Positions 9,712 to 39,026 of a stretch of 64,000 nucleotides of DNA are shown piece by piece. Position 1 is the first letter of the stretch. Each line of letters begins with the position of its first letter. The position numbers and the translations under genes were made by a program. Source of the stretch: an uncultured Gammaproteobacteria bacterium (lineage in GTDB: Bacteria > Patescibacteriota > Microgenomatia > UBA8517); NCBI GenBank assembly GCA_964430475.1, contig CAYSEQ010000001.1:92951-156950 (forward strand). The letters run 5' to 3'. The notes under the pieces were generated by a model, which worked only from the letters and a program-made list of their open reading frames with translations, ran no database searches and was not told the DNA's origin.

Positions 9712-9807
9712 CAAGTTGTCCTACACAACAAGAATCAATCTAAAACTTCTTCGTTAGCATATAAACTAAAACTGAAAAGTTAATTTAATTTTCAATTTAT
9801 TTAAAGT

Positions 9808-9932
9808 GGGGCGGATGAGACTTGCACTCATCATGCTAGCATTCCACGGCTGGATTTGAGACCATTACCCGCAGACTTTCATACAAGTAGGAGTACCCAC
9901 TTGTGACGGCAATCTAATGCCGTTTCGCCCCG
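9808..9932. ncRNA. Candidate structured small RNA of unknown class (GC-rich, multi-hairpin). Strand undetermined.
   Basis: A 125-nt GC-rich island between two convergent gene ends. The 5' GGGGCG pairs with the 3' CGCCCC. Internal hairpins are GAUGAG/CUCAUC (loop ACUUGCA), ACAAGU/ACUUGU, and ACGGCA/UGCCGU (loop AUCUAA). Confidence 0.35.
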
Positions 9933-9988
9933 TTGACATTAGAAAAAAACTATAAGCAAGCTTAATTATAACTCTAGTATTAAGTGTT

Positions 9989-18101: not shown

Positions 18102-19289
18102 TCACGAAATTTTTCTGAGGAATGCGGGTATTTCGAATTTCTCTCCAAAAATATCCTCTTCTTCAGGTATCTGGGTAGGTCTAGTTTCTTCTTTCTCTTT
18201 CTCTTCTTCTTCAATTTTATCTTCAGCTTCCTTCTTTTCTCCTTTGGGTTCCGGAGCTTCACTAACAACACCTTGAAAAGTTGGAGTATGAGAAAAGCTC
18301 GCAATTCTGGAGCGTGTTTCATCAAATCCTGTTGCAACGACGGTAATCCTTATTTGATCAGGCATGTCGTCTTTTATAACAGCACCAAAAATAATATTCG
18401 CATCTGCATCAGCTGCACTTGAAATTATTCTCGCAGCTTCGTCTACCTCGTACATAGTTAAATCTCTTCCACCAGCAATATTAAAAAGAACTCCTGTTGC
18501 ACCCTCGATAGACAAATCTAGCAGTGGAGAAGAAATTGCCGATCTTGCTGCCATTTGAGCTCTATTTTCGCCTACTCCTGTTCCTATGCCGAGAAGTGCT
18601 GTCCCGGCATCCTTCATTACTGTTTTTACATCCGCAAAATCTACATTAATAAGACCGGGAGTGGTGATTAACTCTGCTATCCCTAAAACAGCTTGTTCCA
18701 ATACAGAATCCGCTACTTTAAAAGCATCTAAAAGTGTCATTTTCCTATCAACCACATCCATAAGTCTCTGATTTGGAATTACAATAAGGGTATCAACCGC
18801 TTCTTTCAACTTTTCTATACCCTCTTCGGCGACCACACTTCGTCTCGTACCTTCAAAGGCAAACGGTTTTGTAACTATTGCTACAGTAAGTGCTCCAGCC
18901 TCTTTTGCAATTTGAGCAATAATTGGAGAGGCACCAGTTCCAGTTCCTCCTCCCATACCCGCTGTGATAAAAACCATATCTGAATCTACTAAAAACTCTT
19001 TTATCTTTTCTCTTGATTCCTCAGCAGCCTGAGCACCGATTAACGGATCCCCGCCTGACCCCAAACCTTTTGTCAACTTCTCACCAATCTGAAGTTTAGC
19101 AGGAGCTTTATTTAGAAGGAGAACTTGAGTATCTGTATTTATAGAAATAAATTCTACACCCTTAATCTCTCCATTCTCTACCATAGAGCTTACAGCATTA
19201 CCCCCACCACCTCCTACACCAACAACCTTTATTTTGGCAAGTCTCGCTGAATCTGGTTTAACAAGTGCCATACTTTCTATTTGCTCCAA
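18102..19289 (-). CDS. ftsZ: Cell division protein FtsZ
   Basis: The GVGGGGGNAV tubulin signature, NTDTQ and an acidic C-terminal linker followed by a C-terminal peptide. Confidence 0.95.
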   Translation of the reverse strand: MEQIESMALVKPDSARLAKIKVVGVGGGGGNAVSSMVENGEIKGVEFISINTDTQVLLLNKAPAKLQIGEKLTKGLGSGGDPLIGAQAAEESREKIKEFLVDSDMVFITAGMGGGTGTGASPIIAQIAKEAGALTVAIVTKPFAFEGTRRSVVAEEGIEKLKEAVDTLIVIPNQRLMDVVDRKMTLLDAFKVADSVLEQAVLGIAELITTPGLINVDFADVKTVMKDAGTALLGIGTGVGENRAQMAARSAISSPLLDLSIEGATGVLFNIAGGRDLTMYEVDEAARIISSAADADANIIFGAVIKDDMPDQIRITVVATGFDETRSRIASFSHTPTFQGVVSEAPEPKGEKKEAEDKIEEEEKEKEETRPTQIPEEEDIFGEKFEIPAFLRKIS

Positions 19290-19388
19290 CTACACTAAAC
19301 CATCACTAATAGTTATTAATATTCAGGGCTCTACTTGTGACAAAACAAGCATTACAAGTAATTACTTTCTTTTGTCTTTCAAATATAT

Positions 19389-20654
19389 TTAGGGCAGGAG
19401 ATTTTTTACAATATCAATAAATTTATTAAATACTCCCTTTGCGGGCAGTTTAAATCGTTTTGAGAAAAATGTCAACGGTTCTTCAACATCTCTTGATACT
19501 CCATATAAAATCAAACCTATAGGTGTAGCAAAGGACGGATTCATAATATCATCAATTAACCCACCTACACCTTGAGGATATCCTACTCTTACAGGAAGAG
19601 ATAACATTCTCTTGGCAGAATCAACTACGCCTATAGTCTCTGCCCCACCCCCTGTAAGGATTGCCCCTGCAGGAACCTGGTTTGCTAGACCCTCCCTTTC
19701 CAAAGATAGTCTAACCATAGTAAAAATTTCGTTAAGTCTGGGCCTTATTATTCCCTCACTTAGTGTCTTTTTTGAAACCTTTTTCGACTCATCAACGCCC
19801 AAAGAACCTAAATCAAATTCATCGTCGGTATCTTTTTTCTTAAGTTTTTTTTGAGATTCTGACAATGCAAGTTTTATTTTCTCTGCTGTTTCTAGAGAAA
19901 CCCTCAAACCTATAGCTAAATCATTTGTCACATTTTTTGCTCCAATAGGTAAGACTCGCGAATATGTTAGTTCTCCTTCTGAGAAAACAGAAATGGTGGT
20001 CGTACCACCACCAATATCAATAAGTACACATCCGAGTTCTTTCTCCGTTTTAGTCAAGACAGCTTTTGAGGCGGCGAGGCCTGAAAAAACAAGTTCAATC
20101 GGGTTAATACCAACTTCATTAACTAATTTTTTCAAATTTTTGACAGCGGCAGACGAAGAAGTAACAAGGTGTGTCTCAACTTCAAGTCTCACTCCACTCA
20201 TTCCAATAGGATCTTTAATTCCCCCTTCGCCGTCTACGGTAAACTCTCTAGGAAGAACATGGATTAACTCACGCGACGAAGGAAGTGAAATGGCAGACGC
20301 AGCCTCAACAACTCTTTCTACATCTTCAACATTAATTTCTCCATTTGGTGAGGAGACCGCAACGACTCCATGAGAATTTTGGGAACTTACACTTGCTCCT
20401 CCAATAGCGATAAAAGCCTCATTGAGATTGTATCCTGCCATTCTTTCAGCTTGTTCTACGCTAGAAACCAACGCCTCAACAGCCTCTTCTATATCTACAA
20501 TCTGTCCCTTTTTAATTCCACGAGATTCAACTGATGAAACACCAATAACATTAATCAAATTTTCAAGATTAGCCTCATCAGTCACCGCCTGAGCAATAAT
20601 TGTTACAATTTTAGAAGAGCCAAGTTCTATTCCTGAAATTATTTTTCCTCTCAT
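19389..20654 (-). CDS. ftsA: Cell division protein FtsA
   Basis: Actin-like ATPase motifs (IELGSSKIV, DIGGGTT) and its position upstream of ftsZ. Confidence 0.85.
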   Translation of the reverse strand: MRGKIISGIELGSSKIVTIIAQAVTDEANLENLINVIGVSSVESRGIKKGQIVDIEEAVEALVSSVEQAERMAGYNLNEAFIAIGGASVSSQNSHGVVAVSSPNGEINVEDVERVVEAASAISLPSSRELIHVLPREFTVDGEGGIKDPIGMSGVRLEVETHLVTSSSAAVKNLKKLVNEVGINPIELVFSGLAASKAVLTKTEKELGCVLIDIGGGTTTISVFSEGELTYSRVLPIGAKNVTNDLAIGLRVSLETAEKIKLALSESQKKLKKKDTDDEFDLGSLGVDESKKVSKKTLSEGIIRPRLNEIFTMVRLSLEREGLANQVPAGAILTGGGAETIGVVDSAKRMLSLPVRVGYPQGVGGLIDDIMNPSFATPIGLILYGVSRDVEEPLTFFSKRFKLPAKGVFNKFIDIVKNLLP

Positions 20655-20671
20655 CTTTAATTTAAAAAATT

Positions 20672-21373
20672 TTATCCTGTCCTTAACACAGGGTTTTCAA
20701 ATCTCAAATCAATTTCGAGGTCTTTATAATCTTTAATTTTAAAGTCAAAATCTTCTTTATTCAACTGACTATAAATTAAGACGAACTTTCCCAACAAATA
20801 ATCTAAATCACCCTCTAATGGGAATATTACCCTTGGGCCATCTTGGAGTTCAATAAGCAAAAAGTTTTCCTCCTTTGTTGACGAAAGTACCTGATACTGG
20901 CTTGAGAGTAAGGAAGTTATTTTCAAAGCAAAAAGAGTCTCCTCATCCACTTTGCCACCATAAGAAGGCACATTATCGACTATAGTAACAATATTGGGAA
21001 AATCCTGGGTTGACTCCATTAGAACGAACCCTTCGTTAGAAATAAAATAAGTCTTATTGGAAAACCTAGACTTCAATGTAAATTTGGGTCTCCTCTCAGA
21101 AACATTCACATTAAGCCTGTTGGGAAGCTGAAAGTGCAAACTGAAATCTTTGACTAATGTGTCGTTTTTTAAAAGTCTAACTATCTCACTTCTGGCTTTG
21201 CTTAAACTTTTTCCTCTCAAAATTTTTAACTTTTCTTCCAAGAATTGACTGCAGGGTTCATCTTGATTCTTACAGACTATTTCATCAACCAAGATGTAAT
21301 GTGGAAGAACAAAAAGGGAAGCGAGTAAAAATATAATTGCTAAAAATACTGTGAAAAATTTTATCCTATTCAT
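20672..21373 (-). CDS. ftsQ: FtsQ/DivIB-like division protein (N-terminal TM plus POTRA-like domain)
   Basis: A bitopic 233-aa protein at the canonical position between murG and ftsA. Sequence similarity is weak. Confidence 0.45.
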   Translation of the reverse strand: MNRIKFFTVFLAIIFLLASLFVLPHYILVDEIVCKNQDEPCSQFLEEKLKILRGKSLSKARSEIVRLLKNDTLVKDFSLHFQLPNRLNVNVSERRPKFTLKSRFSNKTYFISNEGFVLMESTQDFPNIVTIVDNVPSYGGKVDEETLFALKITSLLSSQYQVLSSTKEENFLLIELQDGPRVIFPLEGDLDYLLGKFVLIYSQLNKEDFDFKIKDYKDLEIDLRFENPVLRTG

Positions 21374-22482
21374 TTTATAAGATTTTCTATTTCTAGAACT
21401 AACTTCTCACGCGCTTTGATATCAGGATTACGATTTTTCTTCAATCCTTTTGCAATTTTCTTCCAATTATTTTTTAAAAAAATTACTTCAGAAATCAGAC
21501 TCTTAGGAGTTAATTCATCTTGATGTATTATTCTTGATCCAGCGTATCTTTTCGCGAAGGATGCATTTTTTTCTTGTTCTTGAAGATATGAAAAGGGTAT
21601 TGGGACTAATATAGATGGTTTGAACGAAGCAACAATCTTAGAAACGGTATTAGCTCCAGCCCTTGAAATAACAATGGAGGCTGAATTAAAAATTTTTGCG
21701 TATTTATCAGGGCTTACTGTACCAAAAACCCAATATCTTCTTTTTAACTTCTTATCCAAGCTCTCTTTTATCTTTTTAAACTTTTCTTCCTCTTTTAGGC
21801 CTGTCAAATGAATTACCTTACCTATTGACAACAACCTTTCTAGGCTTTTCTCAACAACTTCATTTAAAAAAAGACTTCCTGACTGGCCTCCTGTAACCAA
21901 AATTAGTGGTTCTTTAGGAATATTTTTAAGTATTTTAGGCTTAAAAATAGTGTAGTCAATTGGATTACCAGTTAAAACTGTCTTTCCTCTGGGAAAGTAT
22001 TTCTTACTTGAAATTCTTGAGATGGCAACTTTCTTTGCAAAAATTGCTCCGAAACGATTTGCTATTCCCGCAACAGACACTTGTTCGTGAATTAAAATCG
22101 GAATTCTTAAAAAAAATCCCGCGATAACCACAGGAATTGAACTAGAACCACCAAAAGAAACAATAATATGAGGTTTTATTTTTAAAAGAAGAAAAAAAGC
22201 CTGCAGTAAACCTACTGGAATTTTCAAAAGTGACGGTATTGTCCAGAGCGTAAAAGTTCTCTGAAGACGACCAGAAATTAAGCCATATGTTTTAATACCA
22301 TATTTAGGAAAATAAAGAATTGGCAAAGTTGGAATATTTTCTCCTTCAATAGAGCTTTTAAATCCTATCCAGTAAAAATCCCAATTCTTTTTTCTCTTTC
22401 TTGCTTCTTTAAATACTTCAAAGGCTGTTGAAGCTGCGTGACCTCCAGTTAAAACAATTTTTTTATTTCTAAGGTTAGACAT
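21370..22482 (-). CDS. murG: MurG, undecaprenyldiphospho-muramoylpentapeptide beta-N-acetylglucosaminyltransferase
   Basis: The N-terminus IVLTGGHAAS, the GT28 fold and its position after ftsW. Confidence 0.75.
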   Translation of the reverse strand: MSNLRNKKIVLTGGHAASTAFEVFKEARKRKKNWDFYWIGFKSSIEGENIPTLPILYFPKYGIKTYGLISGRLQRTFTLWTIPSLLKIPVGLLQAFFLLLKIKPHIIVSFGGSSSIPVVIAGFFLRIPILIHEQVSVAGIANRFGAIFAKKVAISRISSKKYFPRGKTVLTGNPIDYTIFKPKILKNIPKEPLILVTGGQSGSLFLNEVVEKSLERLLSIGKVIHLTGLKEEEKFKKIKESLDKKLKRRYWVFGTVSPDKYAKIFNSASIVISRAGANTVSKIVASFKPSILVPIPFSYLQEQEKNASFAKRYAGSRIIHQDELTPKSLISEVIFLKNNWKKIAKGLKKNRNPDIKAREKLVLEIENLIK

Positions 22483-23578
22483 TTTTAGAGTATCTATCGA
22501 TACTTAAAAGTATTCCACAACCAAGCATTAAAGTAATGAGAGATGAACCTCCGTAAGAAATAAAAGGCAGTGGGACTCCTGTTAGAGGAACAAGTGCAAC
22601 CATTGAACCTAAATTTAATATAGTCTGAAGTCCTAAGGCTGAAACGATACCCGCTGATAAAACTTTTGAAAATTGGTCTCTGGAATTTTTTACTACATCA
22701 ACACATATAAGTATAAAATAAAGGTATAAACAAATAAGGACGATAGAACCAATAAACCCGGTTTCTTCCGCAACAATCGCAAAAATAGAATCTGTAGCAG
22801 TTTCTGGCAAAAAAAGATGTTTCTGTCTTGATTGACCAAGGCCAACCCCTAAAAAACCTCCTGATCCCAAGGCTAGTAGTATTTGTCTTATATGATAGGA
22901 ACCTCCTAAGGGATTTTTTATGGTTTCAACAAAACCTAAAAGTCGATCCCTTCTATACGGTGAAATCAAAATTAAGATGATACTTAAAAATGTCCCTAGT
23001 ATAAGACTAAAGGTAATCAACTTCTTACTCACTCCAGCAATAAACAATTGAATTAGACTCATTCCCACTATCAAAATGGTAGTACCTAAATCCGGTTGAA
23101 GCATTATCAAGAATGCCGAGATGACAATCGGTGGAAAGAATGCATATATTTTTTTCTTTTTATAACTAATTTTGGCCAAGAAACTTGCAAGTGAAATTTT
23201 AAGGAATTCAGATGGCTGAATCGAAAAATCCCCAAGAAAAATCCAACGTTTTGCACCCAATAACTCTTTACCTAAACCCGGAAGAAGCACCAACACAAGA
23301 GTCACCAAAGAAAGGAAAAAAAGAGGAACCGCAATTTTTTCCCAAAATAAATAGTGTACCTTGGAAAATACGAAAAGAAGAATGATTCCTATAAAGGCCC
23401 ATAAAACTTGTTGTTTGACAAAATAAAACTTATCGGAAAACTGCCTTTGTGCAAGGGGAGCTGAAACATCAGCAATCGCAACCAGTCCTAAAACTGTTAA
23501 AAGGATTAAGACAATTAAAATCCTATTTCCAATTAAGTTATTTTTATATTTAAATTTTTTAAATAATTGGCGTTGCAC
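22475..23578 (-). CDS. ftsW: FtsW (SEDS family)
   Basis: RQKHLFLPETATDSIFA and PLTGVPLPFISYGGSS. Confidence 0.85.
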   Translation of the reverse strand: MQRQLFKKFKYKNNLIGNRILIVLILLTVLGLVAIADVSAPLAQRQFSDKFYFVKQQVLWAFIGIILLFVFSKVHYLFWEKIAVPLFFLSLVTLVLVLLPGLGKELLGAKRWIFLGDFSIQPSEFLKISLASFLAKISYKKKKIYAFFPPIVISAFLIMLQPDLGTTILIVGMSLIQLFIAGVSKKLITFSLILGTFLSIILILISPYRRDRLLGFVETIKNPLGGSYHIRQILLALGSGGFLGVGLGQSRQKHLFLPETATDSIFAIVAEETGFIGSIVLICLYLYFILICVDVVKNSRDQFSKVLSAGIVSALGLQTILNLGSMVALVPLTGVPLPFISYGGSSLITLMLGCGILLSIDRYSKNV

Positions 23579-23581
23579 CTT

Positions 23582-24637
23582 TTAGATTACACTAAGCCAC
23601 AAACCAAATATGGCAAGCATTAAACCAGCAAGCCAGGCTCGTGTAACAATTTTAGGTTCCTCCCACCCTTTAGCAAGAAACGCATGATGAATAGGGGCTA
23701 GTGGAAAAATAGGGCGCTTAAGAATCCTCCATCCAAAAATTTGAATTGCTGAACTCACAAGTTCTATAACAAATAATCCGGCTATTACAAAAAGTGCAAT
23801 CACGCTCCCAGTCAACAGACCAATCACAGCAAGCATTGCACCAAATGAAAGCGCACCCGCATCACCTAAAAAAATCCTTGCAGGCCATACATTAAAGTAA
23901 AGAAATGAAATCAAGGATCCTAACCAAAGAGTTATAAAAAGGGAAAGTGGGGTATCTAAATTTGACCAGGCAATTGCAGCAAAAGCAAATAAACAAATAA
24001 CTAATAATCCTGTAGCCAGTCCGTCCAGACCATCGGTAATATTAAACGCATTGCTAAAAAGGACAATAATGAACGAAGATATTGGAATATACCAAAAACC
24101 AAAATCTATAGTTTTATTAAAAAATGGGATATGAATTATATCAATACCCAACTTTTTATAAAGAGTTACACCTATAACAATTGCAATAATCCATTCGAGT
24201 ATAAACTTTTGTCTTCTCCCCAAACCAAACCATTGACCTAAATTACCTTTGGTTGGTTTACCAAAAATTTTTAAAAGGTCATCAGAAAGACCTAAAAGTC
24301 CGAAAGATAAGAATGTAAAAAAAATTACGAAAAGTTCTGATTTAAAATCATATGAACTTCTTATGTAAACGCCCATTCTTGCAGCAAACGGAAAAAGAAA
24401 TGCAAAAGATAGTGACACAAAGCAAATTATCAAAATTCCACCTCCAACTGGCGTTCCCGCCTTAACATCGTGTAACTTGTCAAAAAGGGGTACCTTTCCT
24501 TTCTTGGGCGCTTCTTTTTTTCTAACTAATCTTAGTTTGTAAAGAATATCAATAAATGGGATGATTAAGAGGCTACTTATTATAAAAGAAAATATTATTA
24601 AACCCAAAGCTAAGGGCAGTATATTTGGCGAACTCAT
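23582..24637 (-). CDS. mraY: Phospho-N-acetylmuramoyl-pentapeptide transferase MraY
   Basis: NAFNITDGLDGLATG is the MraY/GPT family signature. Confidence 0.9.
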   Translation of the reverse strand: MSSPNILPLALGLIIFSFIISSLLIIPFIDILYKLRLVRKKEAPKKGKVPLFDKLHDVKAGTPVGGGILIICFVSLSFAFLFPFAARMGVYIRSSYDFKSELFVIFFTFLSFGLLGLSDDLLKIFGKPTKGNLGQWFGLGRRQKFILEWIIAIVIGVTLYKKLGIDIIHIPFFNKTIDFGFWYIPISSFIIVLFSNAFNITDGLDGLATGLLVICLFAFAAIAWSNLDTPLSLFITLWLGSLISFLYFNVWPARIFLGDAGALSFGAMLAVIGLLTGSVIALFVIAGLFVIELVSSAIQIFGWRILKRPIFPLAPIHHAFLAKGWEEPKIVTRAWLAGLMLAIFGLWLSVI

Positions 24638-24704
24638 AAAAATCTCTCAAACATTAAAACTTATATTAGCAAAAGTATTATAACAAAATATTTATAATAA
24701 AACT

Positions 24705-25505
24705 TTAATGATTTTTCAGCAAATAATTTCCCCGCTCTAAAATAATCTTAAACCCCTTTTTCCTTAAATTACTCATATGTGTCCTGACTGCGGAGTAAGA
24801 AGCATAACCCGCCCATATAAGATTTTTGATATCATGGATATTCAAAGATTTTTCTTCTCCAAAAAGTTCCAAGATTCGCCTTTCGGTCGGAGTAAGGTGA
24901 ATATCATCTTCAGGCAAAAAAACATATCCCAAGCCTCTTCTATTAACTATAATCTTTGGATTTTCAGGATCCTCTTCAATCTTTCTCCTTATATAATGTA
25001 TCGTGACTCTAACCTTGCTATCAACATTTTCAGAATCGCCCCAAACTTTTCCTAATTCTCTTACTGCTACCATACCTCCTTTTTTTTGTACAAGTAACAT
25101 CAAAACTTGAAACTCTCTTGGGCTTAATTCTACCCTACCTTTTATTGGAAGTTCTATTGATCTATCTTGCTCGCGTATTGAAATCTCCCCAAATTTCCAA
25201 GTTACTTCTGGTTGTGAATTTCTCTCCTTAAGACAATAACCAGTACCCCTGATATTTAAAATCTTTAAGCCTTTTCTTCGTATTTTATGAATAATAAACC
25301 TAACATTTGAATAACTTCCAAATTTTTCTTCAAGATCAGCGTATGGAACAATTCCTTCTGCATTTTCAAGCATTTCTAAAAGTTGTGACTCTCTAGGAGT
25401 TAAATGAGGGGTTCCCTCACTTTCATTTAGGTTCTTACCAAAATTTTCCTTAAATTTTTCTGAAGGAAGATCTCCTTGTTGAGACTCGAATTCAGGAATT
25501 GCCAT
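24705..25505 (-). CDS. Protein made of three tandem OmpR/PhoB-type winged-helix (trans_reg_C) DNA-binding domains with no receiver domain
   Basis: Three repeats each end in the OmpR wing motif: ...LTPRESQLLEML...IRGTGYCL; ...LSPREFQVLMLL...NRRGLGYVFL; ...LTPTERRILELF...LERGNYLL. Confidence 0.6.
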   Translation of the reverse strand: MAIPEFESQQGDLPSEKFKENFGKNLNESEGTPHLTPRESQLLEMLENAEGIVPYADLEEKFGSYSNVRFIIHKIRRKGLKILNIRGTGYCLKERNSQPEVTWKFGEISIREQDRSIELPIKGRVELSPREFQVLMLLVQKKGGMVAVRELGKVWGDSENVDSKVRVTIHYIRRKIEEDPENPKIIVNRRGLGYVFLPEDDIHLTPTERRILELFGEEKSLNIHDIKNLIWAGYASYSAVRTHMSNLRKKGFKIILERGNYLLKNH

Positions 25506-25537
25506 TTGCGCCTATAATATAATATAAAATTAAATTT

Positions 25538-26560: not shown

Positions 26561-26578
26561 TAATATATAACAATTATT

Positions 26579-30122: not shown

Positions 30123-30197
30123 TTAAGATTTTCTTAATAAATTAAGAACTTAAAATTATAGAGAATTAGTAGGTTTAAGTATTTTTTAACATAAAAT

Positions 30198-31607
30198 TTA
30201 GAAAGTTAACGATCTAACTGCTTCTTTAAATTGATAACCCCGATCCTTATAATCTTTAAACATATCAAATGAGGCAGCTGCAGGTGAAAGAAGTACCACC
30301 CCACCTTTAGGTGTAATCTCAAAAGACTTCTGGATCAACTCTTGCATTTTAGGATACCCAAGTTCTAGTAAATTTCCTCTAAAATTTGCCCTTTTAATAG
30401 AACGCTTTATCTTTTTCGCTATCTGCCCAATCAAGATTACATTTGCTATATTTTTGGCTTTTGAAATTTCTTTTCCAAGAAGGTCATAATTCAACCCCTT
30501 ATCAGATCCACCAAGAATCAATGTGAGAGGTTCTTCAAATGAACGCAGTGCGGCTATTGTAGTTTGAGGATTAGTCGAAAACGAATCATTGTAAAAAGAT
30601 ACTCCTTTGACTTCCGCAACTAATTCTAGTCTGTGCTCAAGTCCTTTAAAAGAAAAAAGGACCTTTCTTATCGTCAGTGGATGGACACCAGCAAGATATG
30701 CCGCACAAGCTGCTGCACAAATGTTTTCCCAGTTATGCTTCCCCCTCAACAATAAGTCTTGGGTATCTCCTATTTCCATAGACCTTCCAGAAAAATTAAT
30801 AAAAATCTTTCCATTTTTTACATATGCTCCTTTTACTTTCTTTTTAGTACTAAAATAAAAGACTTTAGCGTTAGTAAGACGCGAGAAAGACTTTGAAACT
30901 TTATAGTCAAATGCTAAAACGCAAAAATCCTCCTTCGCCTGATGCCTAACAATCTGAGACTTTGCTTTTATGTATTCCTCCTTGTCTTTGTGCCAGTCAA
31001 GATGGTCCTCGGTAATATTTAAAACAACACTGATATGTGGACTCTTAGTCAAATCTATTAGCTGAAAGGAGGAGAGCTCTAAAACAACCCAATCGCTGGG
31101 CTTAAGTTTGGGTAAAAGTTCCAAAACAGGCAGACCTATATTGCCAGCAAGATAAACGCTCCTCCCATCTTTTTTCAAAATTTCATAGATCAAGGTGCTT
31201 GTAGTACCTTTTCCTTTAGTGCCAGTGACACCTATGATCCTTGCTTGACAATCATCAAAAAAAACTTTAATTGCTGAAGTAACAAAAACACCTTTACTTT
31301 CTGCCTCAACTATCTCAGGAAGATATCTGTAAACTGCCGGTGTACGAAAAATACAATCAAAACTACCTAATCCATGTTTTAAATAGTTCCTACCAAGAAC
31401 AAGTCTTGCCTTCCGGATATCAAAACCCGAAAAATCTAGTTCTTTCTTTGTCTTTCTATCAAATATTGTCAATTCAGCGCCATTTTTAAGTAAATACTTT
31501 GCTGAATCTAAGCCATTAATTCCCCAACCCAAGATTGCGATTTTTTTACTCTTCCAATTATTCATCTTTAGTAGTAAAGGTATGATAAAACTAAAAAATT
31601 TAATCAA
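30198..31607 (-). CDS. murD: UDP-N-acetylmuramoylalanine--D-glutamate ligase MurD
   Basis: KIAILGWGINGLDSAKYLLKNGAELTIFD (MurD Rossmann), GVTGTKGKGTT and LAGNIGLPVLELL. Confidence 0.8.
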   Translation of the reverse strand: MIKFFSFIIPLLLKMNNWKSKKIAILGWGINGLDSAKYLLKNGAELTIFDRKTKKELDFSGFDIRKARLVLGRNYLKHGLGSFDCIFRTPAVYRYLPEIVEAESKGVFVTSAIKVFFDDCQARIIGVTGTKGKGTTSTLIYEILKKDGRSVYLAGNIGLPVLELLPKLKPSDWVVLELSSFQLIDLTKSPHISVVLNITEDHLDWHKDKEEYIKAKSQIVRHQAKEDFCVLAFDYKVSKSFSRLTNAKVFYFSTKKKVKGAYVKNGKIFINFSGRSMEIGDTQDLLLRGKHNWENICAAACAAYLAGVHPLTIRKVLFSFKGLEHRLELVAEVKGVSFYNDSFSTNPQTTIAALRSFEEPLTLILGGSDKGLNYDLLGKEISKAKNIANVILIGQIAKKIKRSIKRANFRGNLLELGYPKMQELIQKSFEITPKGGVVLLSPAAASFDMFKDYKDRGYQFKEAVRSLTF

Positions 31608-32661
31608 ATCCTATAAACTGAACCTCAGGCTCAAGCTTGATACCAAACTTATTATAAATATCACTAGAAATTACCTCAGAAAGTTTCTTTATGTCTTTGG
31701 CGGTGGCTTTCTTCCTGTAATTTGTAATCACTAGTGCGTTTTTACTAGATACTCTTGCACCTCCTATACCTTTTCCCCTCCAACCCGCTTTATCAATTAA
31801 CCAACCTGCAAATAGCTTATACCTATTCTCTCCATCCTCGTAAAAAGGCATGTCAGGGTATTTTTTAATTAAAGCTTTGAAAATCTTTTTCCCTACAAAA
31901 GGATTTTTGAAAAAAGACCCAGCATTCCCAACAAATTTGGGATTTTCAAGCTTCTTCCTTCTTAAATAAAGAACAGCTTTTCTTACCTCTTTTAATGTCG
32001 GATTTATAACATTTTTTTTCATAAAATAGTCAGTAAGGGACTTATAGGTAAGTGTCGGGGTAGCATTTTTCTTTAACATAAGAAATACTTCGGTAATTAA
32101 ATAGCGTCCAATGTTTCGGGGAATCTTAAATATACTAGATCTATAAGAAAATTTGCAGTCGTTTTTTGAGAAAGTTACAAATTTTTGTTCCTTAAAATCA
32201 AAAGCGATAAGTTTCACAAATGTATCCTTTAATTCTTGGCCGTAGGCACCTATATTTTGGATAGGTGAAGCACCAACTGTTCCGGGAATCCCTGAAAGGC
32301 ATTCTATGCCTTGTAAATTTTTATCAACGCAGATTTTTACCAATCGATCCCATTTTAAACCGGCTTGAGCTTTAACTAAAACATGCCCTTTCCTTTTTGT
32401 AAAACTCACTTTATTACCTCTAAATTTTATTACCAAACCCTTAAAACCAGAATCATTTATAAGAATATTACTTCCCTCACCAATGACAAAAATCGGCAAT
32501 TTTTTTTCTTTCGCAAATAAGACTGCTTGCAAAACATCATTTTTTGTCTTTAAGACGCAAAAATATTGAGCTTTTCCTCCAACCTGAAATGTAGTCAAAT
32601 CTCTAAGATTAACATTCTTATAAAATATCAAGTTTGTATTATCTACTGAAACATTAAGCAT
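31600..32661 (-). CDS. murB: UDP-N-acetylenolpyruvoylglucosamine reductase MurB
   Basis: LTTFQVGG.A, an FAD-binding N-terminal domain and IGEGSNIL. Confidence 0.8.
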   Translation of the reverse strand: MLNVSVDNTNLIFYKNVNLRDLTTFQVGGKAQYFCVLKTKNDVLQAVLFAKEKKLPIFVIGEGSNILINDSGFKGLVIKFRGNKVSFTKRKGHVLVKAQAGLKWDRLVKICVDKNLQGIECLSGIPGTVGASPIQNIGAYGQELKDTFVKLIAFDFKEQKFVTFSKNDCKFSYRSSIFKIPRNIGRYLITEVFLMLKKNATPTLTYKSLTDYFMKKNVINPTLKEVRKAVLYLRRKKLENPKFVGNAGSFFKNPFVGKKIFKALIKKYPDMPFYEDGENRYKLFAGWLIDKAGWRGKGIGGARVSSKNALVITNYRKKATAKDIKKLSEVISSDIYNKFGIKLEPEVQFIGFD

Positions 32662-32666
32662 TTTTC

Positions 32667-34238
32667 TTATCTTTTTATTTCTTTAACGCCACCTCTAAGT
32701 GCTACCTTCACTGCATCAAAGTCCGACCATTCGTATTCTTTTCCATTATAAGCCATGCTCATTTCATGTCCCTTTCCACAGATTATAATAACATCTTCTT
32801 TTTTGGCTAATTTTTGAATAGCAAACGAAATTGCCTCTCCCCTTTCAGGAATTCTTATAAACACATGGTTTGGATTTTTTCCTAACTTATTTAAAACAGT
32901 AAGATTTCTTTTGTTTCCTAATTTGATTTCTTTGGAGTTATTTTTTTTAGCGCCCTTCACCATCTCCCTAATAATATCGTTGACATTTTCACTTCTGGGG
33001 TCTTCTGCGGTAAATATTGAGACATCTGCAATACGCGTTGATATCTCACCCATCAAAGATCTTTTCCCAACATCTCGCTCACCGGCACAACCTAAAACAG
33101 CAATCAACCTTCCCTTATTCCTTTTTTCTATCATCCTTTTTAAATATCCAAGCACATTCTCTAAGGAATTCGGAGTGTGAGCAAAATCTATAAAAATATC
33201 AAGTTTAGCTTTCTTTATCTTTTCTAAACGTCCTTTAGGGGTCTGAAATTGAGCGATATATTTTTTAAGTTTCTGGATATCGGGTGTATAAAATTTCACT
33301 GCCGCAATAGCCGCCAAAATATTATAAACATTATATTCCCCTAAAAGCTTAGTTCTAACACTAAAGGACCTCACACCGTCAATAAGCTCAAAAGTGGTGT
33401 ATGAATCAGATTCGTTTATGTTTATGGCTAAAATATCGGATCCTTTGTCCTTCAATCCATAAGTAATGATTTCTACGGATGGATCTATTTCTTTCTTAAA
33501 CGCTGTATATATATTTGGATCATCTTTATTAAGAACTGCTTTTTTAGTATGTTTAAAAAGCTTTATTTTAGCCTGAAGATACTTTTGGAAAGTTTTATGG
33601 TAATCAAGATGCTCATGAGTGACATTTGTTAAGACTGCACAATCAAAATCAATGCCAAATACCCTTTCTTGATCTAGTGCATGAGAGGTAACCTCCAACA
33701 CAGCAAACTCACACCTTTGTTTTACCATCTTGTACAAAAGGCTATGAAGTAATGTCGGATCTGGACTCGTTACATGAAGTCCAGTATCAAATTCTTTTTC
33801 TTTAATTTTTGCTCCGATTGTTGAAATCAGTCCCGTTTTATGACCCAAAGAATTTAACAATTCACTAATTAAAGTTGAAACCGTTGTCTTACCATCAGTT
33901 CCAGTCACACCTATAATTTTTAAGTTCCTGGAAGGGTAGCCATAAAAAGCAGCAGAAAGTAGACCCAAAAACTTTCTAGAATCCTCGACTTTAATATAAA
34001 CCACTTCATTTGGAATTTTTCTTGAGGATTTTGGATTTTCACTTACGATAACCTTGGCTCCTTTTTGAATCGCATCAAAAATGAAGGTGTTACCGTCAAC
34101 ATGTAAGCCTTTAATGGCAACAAAGAGACTTCCCTCTCCAATTTCCCTTGAATCTTGAGATATTTTTTTAACATCATAATCCTTAAAATTATATATCTTA
34201 CAATTTGAAATTCCCTGAAGAAGACGGGTCAGTTTCAT
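32667..34238 (-). CDS. murE: MurE (UDP-MurNAc-L-Ala-D-Glu : diamino acid ligase)
   Basis: The DSREIGEGSLFVAIKG N-terminal signature and IIGVTGTDGKTT. The specificity motif reads EDPR rather than the canonical DNPR. Confidence 0.85.
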   Translation of the reverse strand: MKLTRLLQGISNCKIYNFKDYDVKKISQDSREIGEGSLFVAIKGLHVDGNTFIFDAIQKGAKVIVSENPKSSRKIPNEVVYIKVEDSRKFLGLLSAAFYGYPSRNLKIIGVTGTDGKTTVSTLISELLNSLGHKTGLISTIGAKIKEKEFDTGLHVTSPDPTLLHSLLYKMVKQRCEFAVLEVTSHALDQERVFGIDFDCAVLTNVTHEHLDYHKTFQKYLQAKIKLFKHTKKAVLNKDDPNIYTAFKKEIDPSVEIITYGLKDKGSDILAININESDSYTTFELIDGVRSFSVRTKLLGEYNVYNILAAIAAVKFYTPDIQKLKKYIAQFQTPKGRLEKIKKAKLDIFIDFAHTPNSLENVLGYLKRMIEKRNKGRLIAVLGCAGERDVGKRSLMGEISTRIADVSIFTAEDPRSENVNDIIREMVKGAKKNNSKEIKLGNKRNLTVLNKLGKNPNHVFIRIPERGEAISFAIQKLAKKEDVIIICGKGHEMSMAYNGKEYEWSDFDAVKVALRGGVKEIKR

Positions 34239-34262
34239 AATTCAACAAAAATCGAAAACGCC

Positions 34263-35546
34263 CTATATTTCCTCAATTTTAGCACCTAATTTTTTTAAGT
34301 TTTGGGAAAAATGAGGATGTCCTCTATACAGTGCATCAGCATTTAATATTACCGTTTCTCCCTCGGAAATCATAGCTGAAATAACCATTGCCACTACTGC
34401 ACGAATAATGTAAGGAGCTTCCAGTATCGCACCCCTTAATTTATTTCCGGCAATAACGATAACTCTATGAGGATCCGCCATTATAATATTCGCTCCCAGT
34501 TTTCCCAACTCCGATGTCCAAAAAAGTCCTGCTTCGTACATCCAGTTATGAAAAAGTACTTGTCCTTCTTTTGCAGCAAGTGCAAGTGGAATAAAAAGAG
34601 GTAAAATGTCCACAGGAAGTGCAGGCCAAGGTTGAGCTTTTACAACTAAGGTTTTTCTCCCTTCCTCAGAAGAGATAACAATCTCATCCTGGTCAACATA
34701 AGCACTGCCATCCTTATACTTAATCCTAACGCCAAACTTCTCAAAAATTCTTGCAATTGGCTTAAACTCTCTTTGCAAGGCATCATGTACTACCACTTTC
34801 CCTTTGGTGGCGGAAGCCATTGCCAAAAAAGTGGCGATTTCATAATGGTCGCTCAATATCCTGTGCTCGGTTGGTTTTAACAATTTTCCTCCTTCAATTT
34901 CCAGAATATTTGAACCTACCCCATCTATCTTTGCTCCACAAGCGTTCAAAAAGTTACAGAGATCCTGCACTTGAAGTTCGCAAGCACCTCCAATAATCTT
35001 TGTTTTACCTGGAAGTCCAACAGCTAGCATGATCGCATTCTCTGTTGCCGTGGGGCTGACTTCAGTAAGCCAAATTTCTCTTGCTTTAGCCTCTCTGGCA
35101 TCCATAGAAACACTTGAAGTAGTCTCTCTTATCTTCACACCCAAATCCCTAAACGCTTGATAATGTGGATCTAATGTTCTATACCCAAGCGTGCAGCCAC
35201 CTGGCAAATCCTTAAAAACTACTTTCTTGAACCTATAAAGCATTGGTCCCCAGAGAAGGGATGTCCCTCTCATATTTCCTAAATCCTCTTTATCCAAGTT
35301 TTTAAAAGACAAATTTTTGTTATCGATTGTCAATGTCTTATTCTCTTTATCCCACAACACTTTACTCCCCATTTTTTGGAGTATATTCAGAAGTCTTGTA
35401 ACATCCGTTATATCTGGGACATTTTTGAATTTTACGGGTTGATCAAACAAAATACTGGCAGGAATCAAAGCAACTGCTGAGTTTTTACTTCCAGAAGGAT
35501 ACACTTCACCTTCAAGTCTTTGACAACCAATTACTCTTATATTCAT
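34263..35546 (-). CDS. murA: UDP-N-acetylglucosamine 1-carboxyvinyltransferase MurA
   Basis: YPSGSKNSAV and LPGGCTLGYR (catalytic Cys) in an EPSP-synthase fold. Confidence 0.85.
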   Translation of the reverse strand: MNIRVIGCQRLEGEVYPSGSKNSAVALIPASILFDQPVKFKNVPDITDVTRLLNILQKMGSKVLWDKENKTLTIDNKNLSFKNLDKEDLGNMRGTSLLWGPMLYRFKKVVFKDLPGGCTLGYRTLDPHYQAFRDLGVKIRETTSSVSMDAREAKAREIWLTEVSPTATENAIMLAVGLPGKTKIIGGACELQVQDLCNFLNACGAKIDGVGSNILEIEGGKLLKPTEHRILSDHYEIATFLAMASATKGKVVVHDALQREFKPIARIFEKFGVRIKYKDGSAYVDQDEIVISSEEGRKTLVVKAQPWPALPVDILPLFIPLALAAKEGQVLFHNWMYEAGLFWTSELGKLGANIIMADPHRVIVIAGNKLRGAILEAPYIIRAVVAMVISAMISEGETVILNADALYRGHPHFSQNLKKLGAKIEEI

Positions 35547-35574
35547 AAATTCTTCTTATTCTATCACAAATTCT

Positions 35575-37287
35575 TTATTTTTCAGGCTGAATTTTAAAGA
35601 TGTCAAAAAGTTCCTTCGCAATCGAATACCACAAGGGTGCAGCTGTTTCAGAAGCCCATGGCGAACTTTTTGGCTCTTTGAGACTTACAAGCATTACAAA
35701 TTTAGGATCGTCAAATGGAGCAAATCCTACAAAAGAAGCAATAGTCTTTTCCTCATCATAGTGTCCTTCTATAGGAATCTGTGCTGTGCCGGTTTTTCCT
35801 GCTACCTTAAATCCAGGAATATTAGTCCATTTTGACTCTCCCCTTTTAGCTGCTTCATACATCATATAAGAAACTTCATCAGCTGCCTCCTTGGATATTA
35901 CCCTACCTCGTACCTCCGGCTTTATATCTTCAACCCAATTTTCACCAACAATTTTGTCAACCACCTGAGGTTTTACCATAATACCATCATTTGCAATAGT
36001 AGCGGCTGCAACCAGCATTTGTATGGGGGTGACCGCGATTCCTTGCCCGAAACTTGCTGTTGCCAAATCTACCTCAGACCACTGCACCTTATCCCTTAAC
36101 CTCGGCGTATCTTCTCCCTGAAGATCAATTCCTGTCTTTTGACCAAATCCGAATTTACTTAAATAATCATATAATTTTTCAATCCCAAGTTTCTGAGCCA
36201 CAAACACCATGCCAACATTATCCGAATTAACAATAACTTCTATCATATTTGAATTAGGACGATACACATTATTCCAAGTTTCTATACTGTACTTTCCAAT
36301 CTTAACCGGACCTGCACATATGTTGCAAACAGTTTCAGGTTCAACAACTTTAGCGTCTAAGGCTGAAGCCATAACTATTATCTTGAAAATGGAGCCTGGC
36401 TCAAATGAACTAGAAATGACAGGATTTGAAAAAAGCGAATCTGAAAACTTCCAATACTTTGCTGGATCATAACTTGGGTAGGATGCCATACCCAAAACTG
36501 CACCACTTTTAGGATCCATCACAACTGCCAATCCTTCGTTGCTTGCATACTTTTTTAAACCCTCAAGAAGTTCTCTTTCCAAAATAAGCTGAATTCTTTT
36601 ATCAATGTGTGTTTGTAAATCAACCCCGGATATAGCTTCAGACTCAGACTCTCTTGATACAAGAATTGGAATTCCTCCTACATCTTCTTCGCGCCTGGTA
36701 AAACCAGATTTGCCCGAAAGAATCAAATTATAAAAACCCTCCAAACCAAAATAACCAGTGTCCTCTCCTTGGCTATTTTTACCGACAAAACCTAAAAGGT
36801 GCGCGCTTGAAGAACCCTCAGGATAGAATCTTTTTTCCTCTCTTTGAAATCCTATCCCTTTTATATTTAAGTTTTCTATCTTACTTTTAGTCTCTGCGTC
36901 AATCCTACTTTTCAGGACTACCCACACTACATCTTTTTTAGTCAAAAGATTGAAAATTCTTTCAACCTCCTTTAAAACATCCTCCCTTTCATTAGGATCC
37001 TCCACAAAAAGGGGTGCTAATTCTTCCGCAATTTTCCTAGGATCTTTTTCTATGCGAGGCAAATCCGCAAAGACTAGCCACGCATCAGTGGTTGCAACCA
37101 ACCAACTTCCATCAGTTGACAATATCTCTCCTCGGTGAGCAAAAGTTTCCGAAGTTTTTTGATATTGTGCTCTTGCTTTCCTAGAAAATTCCTCGCCTTT
37201 ATAAACCTGCCAATAAAAAAGTCTTAGAATGATCAATAAAAAGGAAAAAATAAAGAAAAGCTTGACCAAAAAAACACGGGTTTGCAT
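35575..37287 (-). CDS. ftsI: Class B penicillin-binding protein / FtsI transpeptidase
   Basis: An N-terminal TM. SxxK (GSIFK), SxN (NSDN) and KTGT (AGKTGTA) motifs. Confidence 0.85.
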   Translation of the reverse strand: MQTRVFLVKLFFIFSFLLIILRLFYWQVYKGEEFSRKARAQYQKTSETFAHRGEILSTDGSWLVATTDAWLVFADLPRIEKDPRKIAEELAPLFVEDPNEREDVLKEVERIFNLLTKKDVVWVVLKSRIDAETKSKIENLNIKGIGFQREEKRFYPEGSSSAHLLGFVGKNSQGEDTGYFGLEGFYNLILSGKSGFTRREEDVGGIPILVSRESESEAISGVDLQTHIDKRIQLILERELLEGLKKYASNEGLAVVMDPKSGAVLGMASYPSYDPAKYWKFSDSLFSNPVISSSFEPGSIFKIIVMASALDAKVVEPETVCNICAGPVKIGKYSIETWNNVYRPNSNMIEVIVNSDNVGMVFVAQKLGIEKLYDYLSKFGFGQKTGIDLQGEDTPRLRDKVQWSEVDLATASFGQGIAVTPIQMLVAAATIANDGIMVKPQVVDKIVGENWVEDIKPEVRGRVISKEAADEVSYMMYEAAKRGESKWTNIPGFKVAGKTGTAQIPIEGHYDEEKTIASFVGFAPFDDPKFVMLVSLKEPKSSPWASETAAPLWYSIAKELFDIFKIQPEK

Positions 37288-37613
37288 TACTTCCTCAAGA
37301 AAGCAAACACATCCTCAACATCAATATAAATTTTTTGGTCAACTTTCCTAAATCCTAATTCCGAAGCTTTCTTCTCAAGCTCCATTAACGAGGTAGTATA
37401 GGCTAACTTACTTTCAATTTCTTTATTTTTTCTAGAAAGAGACTCAATTTCATCTTCTAAACGGCTTATTTGACCACCCCAACCCAAAACCTGCAAGGTT
37501 AAAAACACTTTTATAAGTACATAAACTCCTAAAGAAACGACCAATAATACTCTTTTATTTAGTCTTACCTTTTTTTCATTATTTTTTGTTTTTCTTAGAA
37601 AATTGTATTTCAT
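37287..37613 (-). CDS. ftsL: FtsL-like bitopic coiled-coil division protein
   Basis: A 108-aa protein with one TM plus a coiled coil, sitting between rsmH and ftsI. Confidence 0.45.
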   Translation of the reverse strand: MKYNFLRKTKNNEKKVRLNKRVLLVVSLGVYVLIKVFLTLQVLGWGGQISRLEDEIESLSRKNKEIESKLAYTTSLMELEKKASELGFRKVDQKIYIDVEDVFAFLRK

Positions 37614-38584
37614 ATTTTTTCTAAAACCCTAAGTCTTGCACTTCGCGCTCTAGGGTTTTCCTTAATTTCCTCTTCTTTAGGTAAAATAGGCTTTTTCGTT
37701 ATCACTTTTCCTTCTTTCTTTTCTTCCAAAGTTTTGAAAAAGTGCTTAACTATCCTATCTTCACCCGAATGATAACTAATCACGACTAACCTTCCACCTC
37801 TATCAAGTAAATTAAAAGCCTTGGGCAAAGTTTTTTTTAAATTCTCAAGTTCACTATTAACCGCTATACGAAGGGCTAGGAAAGGCAGTGTAGCGGGATT
37901 TAAGTTGCGATGCTTAATCGTAGACTCTTTGATAATCTGCAAAAAATCACCAACCTTTTCAATACTTTTTAGCTTTCTTGTTTCAATAATTTTCCTCACA
38001 AGTTTTCTTGCAGATTTTAAATCCATTACCTCACCAAATAACTTAAGCAAGTTTCTCCTGTCTAAAAGTCTTAACAAATCTGAAGCCTTAACACCTTGAC
38101 CTTCGGGATCAAAACGCATGTCAAGAGGGTCGGACGGTCTATTAAAAGAAAAACCTCTGTTTTCTTTTTCAAGTTGATAAGACGATATCCCTAAATCGAA
38201 TAAAACCCCATTTACTTTTTCAAAACCAAATCGTTTTGCAATCCTATCAAGGCTCAAAAAATTACCTTTGACTAATTTGATATCGCCCCAAACCAAAGAT
38301 GTTTGGTTTGGGACAGGGCAGGCTTTTCTCTTTAAAGTTTGATCAGATAGGATTTTTTTAATTTCTTTTCTTGCTATACCAAGAGATTTTCTATCAGCTT
38401 CAATACCCAATACATGTCCGCCTCTTTCCCAGATTTTTATTGTATGCCCTCCCAAGCCAAGTGTGGCATCTATAAACTTTGCCCTAGGTTTTAAATGTGC
38501 AAGTTCATTTAGCTTTAAAGCTTCCAAAACTTCATCAACAAGTACTGGCCTATGTATTCCTTGACCTTTTCTTAAATATTCCAT
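37610..38584 (-). CDS. rsmH: 16S rRNA (cytosine1402-N4)-methyltransferase RsmH (MraW)
   Basis: FIDATLGLGGHT and FDLGISSYQLE. Confidence 0.9.
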   Translation of the reverse strand: MEYLRKGQGIHRPVLVDEVLEALKLNELAHLKPRAKFIDATLGLGGHTIKIWERGGHVLGIEADRKSLGIARKEIKKILSDQTLKRKACPVPNQTSLVWGDIKLVKGNFLSLDRIAKRFGFEKVNGVLFDLGISSYQLEKENRGFSFNRPSDPLDMRFDPEGQGVKASDLLRLLDRRNLLKLFGEVMDLKSARKLVRKIIETRKLKSIEKVGDFLQIIKESTIKHRNLNPATLPFLALRIAVNSELENLKKTLPKAFNLLDRGGRLVVISYHSGEDRIVKHFFKTLEEKKEGKVITKKPILPKEEEIKENPRARSARLRVLEKI

Positions 38585-39026
38585 GTTCTAACCACTTCTC
38601 TTCCTTCGCAATCTTCTCGATAGCCAGGGATGCCTTTTCTTCTGCGCTCTTTTCCAGATCAATCCACTTTTCTTTAGCCCATATTTCAACCCTATCCCCC
38701 AATCCAAGAAAGACTACCTCTTCCTTCAATCCAGCAAAATCTACTAAAACCTCAGGCAATACAAACCTTCCCTGACTATCTAGACTCACCTCAAAAGCTG
38801 ATCCCAAGATAAACCTATCGATATCCCTTATCGGGGAGATCACCAGATGGGTTCTACCGATAAGGCGATCTATTAGATTTTGCCAATTCTGTTTTGAAAC
38901 CAACACACAACACCCCTCGTACCACCTCGCGACTATCATCTCTGAACCCAACTCTTCCCTGAACTTTTTAGGTACTGCTACTCTATTTTTTTGTGTTAAT
39001 TTGCTAAAGTACTGCCCAATAAGCAT
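38550..39026 (-). CDS. mraZ: Transcriptional regulator MraZ
   Basis: The N-terminus LDSKGRV-like: MLIGQYFSKLTQKNRVAVPKKFREEL, with a duplicated MraZ domain, and ...DSQGRFVLP. Confidence 0.85.
   Translation of the reverse strand: MLIGQYFSKLTQKNRVAVPKKFREELGSEMIVARWYEGCCVLVSKQNWQNLIDRLIGRTHLVISPIRDIDRFILGSAFEVSLDSQGRFVLPEVLVDFAGLKEEVVFLGLGDRVEIWAKEKWIDLEKSAEEKASLAIEKIAKEEKWLEHGIFKKRSRNT

Follow-up and report, generated by a model that had tools for sequence, protein, structure and literature searches.

The stretch of DNA analysed here, 64 kb of contig CAYSEQ010000001.1 (hereafter the window), carries on its minus strand, at positions 18102-39026, a division and cell wall (dcw) gene cluster of exactly 19 co-directional, tightly packed open reading frames (ORFs), running in the ORF listing from mraZ to ftsZ. 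Between murD and mraY lies a four-gene cassette encoding an α/β-hydrolase, a MurF-type ligase with a membrane domain (TM-MurF), a DegT-like pyridoxal 5'-phosphate (PLP) enzyme and a Fem-like protein. The cassette is conserved and syntenic in related genomes; its hydrolase and TM-MurF form a constant pair, and the DegT-like and Fem-like pair and D-Ala:D-Ala ligase (Ddl) are local alternatives in the loci examined. The genes, identified by Pfam and NCBIfam profile searches, are as follows.

38550-39026, minus strand: mraZ (Pfam MraZ, 76.9 bits)
37610-38584, minus strand: rsmH, or mraW (Pfam Methyltransf_5, 256.6 bits)
37287-37613, minus strand: ftsL-like, a bitopic protein of 108 aa assigned by position, with no Pfam match and one transmembrane (TM) segment at residues 22-40
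35575-37287, minus strand: ftsI, a class B penicillin-binding protein (PBP; Pfam PBP_dimer and Transpeptidase)
34263-35546, minus strand: murA (NF006873, 352.5 bits; cutoff 297)
32667-34238, minus strand: murE, best match to the diaminopimelate (DAP) type (NF001126, 485 bits; cutoff 373)
31600-32661, minus strand: murB (NF000755, 352 bits; cutoff 277)
30198-31607, minus strand: murD (TIGR01087, 375.5 bits; cutoff 212)
29403-30122, minus strand: α/β-hydrolase (Pfam Abhydrolase_1, Abhydrolase_6 and Hydrolase_4)
27835-29430, minus strand: TM-MurF (TIGR01143, 248.5 bits; cutoff 288.6)
26579-27835, minus strand: DegT-like PLP enzyme (Pfam DegT_DnrJ_EryC1, 193 bits)
25538-26560, minus strand: Fem-like protein, a predicted aminoacyl-tRNA-dependent transferase (Pfam FemAB, 129 bits)
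24705-25505, minus strand: triple winged-helix regulator (Pfam Trans_reg_C at residues 124-196)
23582-24637, minus strand: mraY (Pfam Glycos_transf_4)
22475-23578, minus strand: ftsW (Pfam FTSW_RODA_SPOVE, 320 bits)
21370-22482, minus strand: murG (Pfam Glyco_transf_28 and Glyco_tran_28_C)
20672-21373, minus strand: ftsQ-like, assigned by position and a weak POTRA_1 match (E 0.0045), with a TM segment at residues 6-24
19389-20654, minus strand: ftsA (Pfam FtsA and SHS2_FTSA)
18102-19289, minus strand: ftsZ (Pfam Tubulin and FtsZ_C)

This gene order agrees with that first proposed from the sequence alone (the original prediction). Membership of the dcw type is borne out by the mraZ-rsmH start, the ftsQ-ftsA-ftsZ end and the ftsI, mur and mraY-ftsW-murG genes between them, all in one direction. 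With the canonical cluster (E. coli and B. subtilis type) and its inferred 17-gene ancestor the window shares the mraZ-rsmH-ftsL-ftsI 5' end, the Mur ligases in the middle, the mraY-ftsW-murG block, the ftsQ-ftsA-ftsZ 3' end and the co-directional arrangement. The murA and murB genes, which the original prediction took to have been recruited, have a precedent, since both are among the 17 genes that one reconstruction assigns to the ancestral cluster and are found in its longest known version (PMC8871954). The window departs from the canonical cluster in that murD lies upstream of the MurF block, whereas Gottesmanbacteria-type relatives keep mraY-murD-ftsW, in having neither ddl nor murC, and in containing a MurF with a membrane domain, three extra enzymes and a regulator. 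Pfam scans of the window's remaining ORFs, down to a length of 100 aa, detected none of murC, ddl, murI and alr. The original prediction had counted five non-canonical genes between murD and mraY; five are there, but TM-MurF is best regarded as the cluster's own MurF, placed between murE and mraY though adjoining neither, so that the extra genes number four.

Distances from gene to gene range from -35 to +99 nt across the cluster, and this operon-like packing indicates that the whole cluster is probably one transcription unit. Promoter-like and terminator-like sites in a scan of the cluster were no commoner than in shuffled sequence, and terminator-like sites were absent between its genes; as no signal rose above the shuffled background, the scan provides no positive evidence for or against internal promoters.

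Related loci, labelled L001 onwards in the form L0xx and fetched as stretches of about 20 kb, were collected by a scan with a profile of the DegT-like protein, taking one genome per species and the best 80 of at least 571 candidates. By gene content and identity these 80 look like members of the Candidate Phyla Radiation (CPR, or Patescibacteria), whatever their labels. The nearest named relatives of the window's TM-MurF and DegT-like proteins belong to Woesebacteria and other Microgenomates, and the source organism is a Woesebacteria-like CPR bacterium. Many TPA metagenome-assembled genomes titled 'uncultured Gammaproteobacteria' or 'Saccharibacteria' (L009, L011, L012, L019, L020 and others) have Woesebacteria-like or Parcubacteria-like clusters with proteins 50-80% identical to those of the window, and their labels look wrong.

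The hydrolase, TM-MurF, DegT-like and Fem-like genes are all present in 71 of 87 loci, from different species and without any change of order or strand; 14 of the 16 incomplete loci are interrupted by contig ends. The cassette is found across Microgenomates and Parcubacteria and in one locus labelled Peregrinibacteria. In Microgenomates it is part of the dcw cluster, with murD or murA on one side and mraY on the other, and in Parcubacteria it is placed within the arrangement MreC-PBP2-LysRS-SerRS-cassette-FtsQ. Seven relatives on long contigs have the order ftsI, murA, murE, murC, murB, murD, sometimes murI, then hydrolase, TM-MurF, DegT, Fem and mraY through ftsZ, often followed by the isoleucyl-tRNA synthetase gene (IleRS). 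The four proteins are conserved to the same degree as MurD, MurE and MurA (39-61% identity), the DegT-like one being the most conserved of them at long evolutionary distance. Given this synteny, the layout is not a private remodelling, as had been supposed, but the lineage norm, the ordinary dcw cluster of Microgenomates-type CPR bacteria.

It is therefore highly improbable that the five genes between murD and mraY came in recently from elsewhere, or form an operon of their own, within the dcw cluster of this one genome. The regulator gene, unique to this genome, would fit such an origin; against it stand the synteny of the cassette in 71 loci, the match of its GC content and third-position GC content (GC3) to neighbouring genes, genes that overlap or lie within 75 nt of one another, and promoter-like and terminator-like sites in no more than background numbers. 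Recent horizontal insertion was rejected on base composition and synteny. Scattering of the genes in relatives, or an operon of their own, would have told against the proposal that the extra genes form one unit with the lipid II genes; neither was seen, and with the order kept in relatives and no separate transcription signals that proposal stands.

TM-MurF has the central ATP-binding (P-loop) and C-terminal domains of a Mur ligase (Mur_ligase_M 128 bits, Mur_ligase_C 39.5 bits, GITGSYGKTTTKE motif). It lacks the N-terminal UDP-MurNAc-binding domain of MurF, residues 1-165 forming instead a helical membrane domain with about five hydrophobic segments, and the TIGR01143 match covers profile positions 65-404 only, with a score under the family cutoff. 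In the AlphaFold2 (AF2) model (predicted local distance difference test, pLDDT, 94) seven N-terminal helices precede a MurF fold, for which the best Foldseek match is MurF 4qf5 (E 2e-27) and the top ten are all MurF. Two polar motifs of the membrane domain, WxQxKEYRxDRF and RxPVFTxRA, are nearly invariant. Used alone as a query, this domain retrieved 64 matches, all of them TM-MurF N-termini or fragments, so that no independent family offers a clue to its function. No dcw-type locus has any other MurF-like gene within about 10 kb of the cassette; this, the fold of TM-MurF and its position between murE and mraY argue that it acts as the MurF of the cell. A Mur-ligase-family protein without the UDP-binding N-terminal domain is also found in MurT/GatD, which works on a membrane-bound precursor, lipid II. 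TM-MurF shares that missing domain but differs in reaching only 20 bits with the MurT profile, in its MurF-like fold, in having its own membrane domain and in having no glutaminase partner. Assignments as MurT, as a CapB-like ligase or as a pseudomurein ligase were rejected, the profile scores being far below that of MurF.

The hydrolase, which overlaps TM-MurF by 28 nt, is a generic serine α/β-hydrolase with a GHSFGG nucleophile motif and a hydrophobic lid segment at residues 109-132. It adjoins TM-MurF in operons with DegT and in operons with Ddl alike, from which we infer that it belongs with TM-MurF and not with the DegT-like and Fem-like proteins. The hydrolase, DegT and Fem proteins had been proposed to make three independent modifications of the precursor. 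That view is hard to reconcile with a hydrolase that stays with TM-MurF even in operons that have Ddl and lack DegT and Fem, and with a DegT-Fem pair that is always found together, in the position of Ddl.

The DegT-like protein has the fold and PLP-binding residues of its family (193 bits against a Pfam cutoff of 19.8), and its catalytic Lys 185 and Asp 156 are invariant. Arg 61 is also invariant and lies in an SGR motif, at a site where the family has SGT. A conserved hydrophobic insertion of about 55 aa forms a helix-turn-helix, with helices at residues 218-238 and 248-258 in the AF2 model (pLDDT 92). All neighbours in the PDB are 17-24% identical, and none of the NCBIfam equivalogs (PseC, LegC, ArnB, WecE and others) was reached, the best being PseC at 149.5 bits against a cutoff of 423.5. 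The family suggests one account of the pair, in which the DegT-like enzyme would aminate a sugar in a wall precursor linked to a nucleotide or a lipid and the Fem-like enzyme would use an aminoacyl-tRNA to aminoacylate the resulting amine, yielding a decorated peptidoglycan or an attached glycopolymer. Family function and fold point to sugar aminotransferases, an amine that is made and then acylated is the simplest chemical link between the two enzymes, and the hydrophobic insertion suggests a membrane-bound substrate; a precedent is the Fem-like Orf11, which reportedly glycylates an amino sugar in the biosynthesis of the streptothricin-related BD-12. However, among the recurrent neighbour families scanned beside the 71 complete cassettes there was no dehydratase or oxidoreductase that would supply a keto sugar, although one may be encoded elsewhere. 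The Thr of the SGT motif of the family is here an invariant Arg, and the complementarity with Ddl described below would go unexplained. We regard this account as quite unlikely.

The Fem-like protein has the Fem fold (129 bits against a FemAB cutoff of 24), with the catalytic Phe-Lys pair, F301-K302, invariant in 76 of 76 sequences; the catalytic role of the lysine is documented for Lys 305 of W. viridescens FemX (PMC12945691). Its best PDB matches are S. aureus FemX (6snr) and the W. viridescens enzyme. It shares the double-GNAT Fem fold and the Phe-Lys pair with these and with S. aureus FemA, and with the W. viridescens enzyme also a size of about 340 aa without a coiled coil. In W. viridescens FemX, Lys 36 and Arg 211 bind UDP-MurNAc-pentapeptide (PMC8280954). 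In the Fem-like family the residues aligned with them (in a profile alignment of about 20% identity) are not conserved, being Q, N or H, with 3 Arg among 76, and F, H or Y. The window protein differs from FemX in scoring 76 against a cutoff of 500 for the NCBIfam FemX equivalog and in being always paired with a PLP enzyme, the DegT-like protein. A second, divergent Fem paralogue (25-30% identity) lies between the hydrolase and TM-MurF in L034, L038, L047, L086 and L087, all from Parcubacteria. Judged by sequence and models, the DegT-like and Fem-like proteins are members of their families by fold that fall outside any characterised subfamily.

Ddl was sought with E. coli DdlB (checked against PDB 2DLN) as query in 1.55 Mb made up of the window and the DegT-type loci. 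The sole match is a truncated copy of 259 aa just upstream of the cassette in L019; the truncation recurs in two protein clusters, and full-length relatives have 384 aa. Those relatives come from the CPR loci L089, L091 and L092 and from L090 of Collierbacteria. In all four, ddl adjoins the hydrolase and TM-MurF genes, DegT and Fem are absent, and in L089, L091 and L092 the trio occupies the same slot before mraY. The same operon, without DegT or Fem, is found in Tissierella sp. MB52-C2 (CP133261.1) and, from a metagenome scan with a profile of CPR Ddl, in about 24 non-CPR contigs among the matches listed (44-70% GC, some ending within the hydrolase), which also included two close CPR relatives. 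The non-CPR TM-MurFs have the same N-terminal architecture and motifs as the CPR ones. In L096 (8216-11173) and L097 (6891-11170), non-CPR contigs of 54-66% GC, the operon adjoins a murA-like gene, which supports a role in peptidoglycan synthesis outside CPR too. Across Tissierella, the human-gut and other metagenome contigs and the few CPR such as Collierbacteria, the operon thus has the same pair as the window, with Ddl as third gene where the window has the DegT-like and Fem-like genes; its identity to the window in TM-MurF and hydrolase is only about 30%, and its TM-MurFs fall in a separate clade. We found no experimental study of it in the literature searched. The ddl-murF operon of Bacillus is related to it in spirit.

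Among about 120 loci, DegT and Fem never occurred with an intact Ddl next to the hydrolase and TM-MurF, and neither intact Ddl nor Alr was present in any of the Microgenomates-type clusters examined. Together these clusters cover nearly the whole precursor pathway: MurD, MurE or MurI are present in many loci and MurG in most, and the Gottesmanbacteria-type ones, which carry MurA, MurB, MurC and MraY, also add GlmS, GlmU, PgeF and DgkA. One such locus, L064, is an unusually complete peptidoglycan 'super-cluster', with PgeF/YfiH (Cu-oxidase_4), GlmU, GlmS and an undecaprenol-kinase-like kinase of the DgkA type by mraY (30-7582 and 12306-12686; also in L060, L070 and L073).

A closely related pair of loci illustrates the exchange. 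L019 and L091 are 90% identical in FtsA, 89% in FtsZ, 87% in MraY and 80% in FtsI, yet only 29-30% in the hydrolase and TM-MurF, which implies that the whole module was exchanged. As a natural experiment this pair is suggestive but confounded. At L019:2950-7392 a fragmented murE and unrelated genes stand in place of the murA-murD of L091, while mraY-ftsZ are 66-90% identical between the two, and the precursor pathway of L019 may be partly degenerate. A neighbour-joining tree places 70 DegT-type TM-MurFs in one clade and 15 Ddl-type ones, CPR and non-CPR, in another, regardless of taxonomy.

We tentatively favour an explanation in which the DegT-like and Fem-like proteins stand in for Ddl and supply what the membrane-bound MurF adds. 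TM-MurF would work beside MraY at the membrane surface, completing the stem peptide with its last residues. The Fem-like enzyme would couple an aminoacyl-tRNA-borne residue to a second amino acid, or otherwise build an equivalent MurF substrate, and the DegT-like PLP enzyme would give one of the partners its unusual chemistry, most simply the D configuration. Judging by their hydrophobic segments, TM-MurF, the DegT-like protein and the hydrolase may form a complex at the membrane that feeds MraY. Among PLP enzymes, SelA and SepCysS act on aminoacyl-tRNA. In the dehydrophos protein DhpH, a Fem-like domain is fused to a PLP domain, the latter not of the DegT family, so that a PLP enzyme is coupled to a Fem-like tRNA-dependent transferase as in the cassette. 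DhpH belongs to a secondary-metabolite pathway and has fused domains, whereas the cassette has separate genes. For the Fem-like part of DhpH, DhpH-C, the modelled substrates are Leu-tRNA and a free amino-acid analogue, L-Ala(P) (PMC12945691).

Several points weigh against this substitution for Ddl. A ddl gene may sit elsewhere in the genome, as in many bacteria, and the truncated ddl of L019 is confounded by the loss of murA-D and the fragmentation of murE. Fem transferases use L-aminoacyl-tRNA or Gly-tRNA, whereas D,D-transpeptidases depend on a D residue in position 4. The nearest folds to the AF2 model of the DegT-like protein are all sugar aminotransferases; to our knowledge every characterised DegT-family enzyme works on a sugar or cyclitol, and we know of no amino-acid racemase or epimerase in the family. 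The comparison at Lys 36 and Arg 211 rests on a distant alignment, and the TM-MurF tree is rough, so that its split could equally mean that a few CPR lineages acquired a Firmicute-type operon horizontally. In two loci, L041 and L066, the hydrolase, DegT and Fem genes are present without TM-MurF. In these (L041:9283-12517 and L066:9261-12574) DegT directly follows the hydrolase and a 114-aa membrane protein (family f37) lies between DegT and Fem, as it also does in L027, which has TM-MurF; murD and murE are absent from the L041 and L066 clusters as well.

A more conventional reading, not far from that of the original prediction, would have TM-MurF add D-Ala-D-Ala from a Ddl whose gene lies elsewhere, the Fem-like protein act as a FemX that branches position 3 before the MraY step, and the DegT-like enzyme make an unrelated change, the wall being branched. 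The order MurF, Fem, MraY fits W. viridescens FemX, which works on UDP-MurNAc-pentapeptide, and the Fem-like protein is closest to the S. aureus and W. viridescens FemX, with no coiled coil, like the latter. The second Fem paralogue of the five Parcubacteria loci would be expected of multi-residue bridges, and aminoacyl-tRNA synthetase genes flank the module, the glycyl one (GlyRS) in the window and the lysyl and seryl ones (LysRS-SerRS) in Parcubacteria. This reading nevertheless leaves unexplained why DegT and Fem are inseparable, why they and an intact Ddl never co-occur beside the hydrolase and TM-MurF, and why the TM-MurFs divide into clades by partner. The residues aligned with Lys 36 and Arg 211 are not conserved, MurE is of the DAP type by profile and bridges on DAP are uncommon, and L019 and L091, with FtsI 80% identical, would have branched and unbranched walls, respectively. 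On balance we hold it to be rather unlikely. The substitution for Ddl has a wider form, in which a large number of Microgenomates and Parcubacteria, perhaps the majority, no longer have D-Ala:D-Ala ligase and make the TM-MurF substrate by a tRNA-dependent Fem/DegT route; this we consider doubtful.

Only two features of the cluster are specific to this genome: murC is missing from it and the triple winged-helix regulator has been added. The original prediction's statement that murC and ddl are absent holds for the window, in which neither is found, but the absence of murC is peculiar to this genome, as tblastn places a murC-like gene within the cluster in 29 of 37 related dcw-type loci; the five of these checked all score above the TIGR01082 cutoff. 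Comparison with L002, L005, L006 and L008 revealed no remnant of murC at 30198-34238, where the gaps are only 5-28 nt, and the gene probably now resides in another part of this genome. Three OmpR-type winged-helix repeats make up the regulator (z-scores of 12-13 for the internal repeats against shuffles; Trans_reg_C 90 bits, plus an HTH_11-like stretch below threshold). Pfam gave no match to a receiver domain (Response_reg), so the protein is not of the OmpR/PhoB response-regulator type. Its gene is absent from all 87 related loci, has a GC content like that of the neighbouring genes, and would be a private addition to the cluster.

Among the remaining genes, the ftsL-like protein has orthologues in L005 and L007, and the ftsQ-like family is present in 61 loci, one member matching POTRA_1 at E 1e-4. 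MraY is 60-74% identical to its orthologues in Microgenomates-type loci. The start codon of murD is uncertain, being TTG at 31607 here as against a 455-aa gene call in the Logan record. Variants in the mur region of related loci include a MurE fused to the nucleotidyltransferase half of GlmU (L002:4623-6878, Woesebacteria CP065002.1), double Mur-ligase proteins of 874-926 aa that combine MurE with a MurD-like or MurC-like part in Ddl-type CPR loci (L089:6819-9443 and L091:5754-8534), and DUF218 (SanA/YdcF-like) genes among the mur genes (L006:5134-5802; L089:3582-4400 and 9388-9984).

In the window the cluster is flanked by aminoacyl-tRNA synthetase genes on its own strand, GlyRS upstream (40067-41476, minus strand) and IleRS downstream (14907-17954, minus strand), and in Parcubacteria LysRS-SerRS lie directly upstream of the hydrolase (L077:4938-7866), each in roughly 26-32 loci. 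These flanking genes could be relevant to a tRNA-dependent Fem-like enzyme, or a coincidence. Just upstream of mraZ (39214-39972, minus strand) is a gene whose 252-aa product has a TM segment at its N-terminus and matches nothing in Pfam; it recurs in the same place in L007 and L020 at 41-52% identity. A second protein of the SEDS family, RodA-like (FTSW_RODA_SPOVE 250 bits), is encoded directly downstream of IleRS (13848-14903, minus strand). Two long runs of glycosyltransferase genes (GT1, GT2 and GT4; 1-6200 and 41500-63715, minus strand), which also hold a Wzy-like polymerase, PMT_2 proteins, a Wzx-like flippase, a sugar transferase (Bac_transf) and DUF4012, form a large locus for surface polysaccharide that brackets the dcw cluster.

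In the literature searched we found nothing on the cassette, TM-MurF or Ddl in CPR and no paper joining FemAB with any CPR term; both TM-MurF with its hydrolase partner and the DegT-Fem pair appear to be unstudied. The presence of TM-MurF and the hydrolase in cultivable Firmicutes such as Tissierella makes them open to experiment. For annotation, the layout of this cluster should be read as a lineage norm and not as an oddity of one genome. Ddl and MurF catalyse textbook, near-universal steps of peptidoglycan synthesis, and Ddl is a target of D-cycloserine. CPR bacteria make up a sizeable share of bacterial diversity; their members live attached to host cells and may attack host walls. A module that seemingly replaces Ddl across much of this radiation would mean either a different wall chemistry or another route to the same chemistry. 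If the wider form of the proposed substitution is correct, at least 80 and possibly more than 500 species-level genomes would encode a new way of completing the peptidoglycan stem peptide, and Fem-type tRNA-dependent enzymes and DegT-type PLP enzymes would reach into core metabolism.

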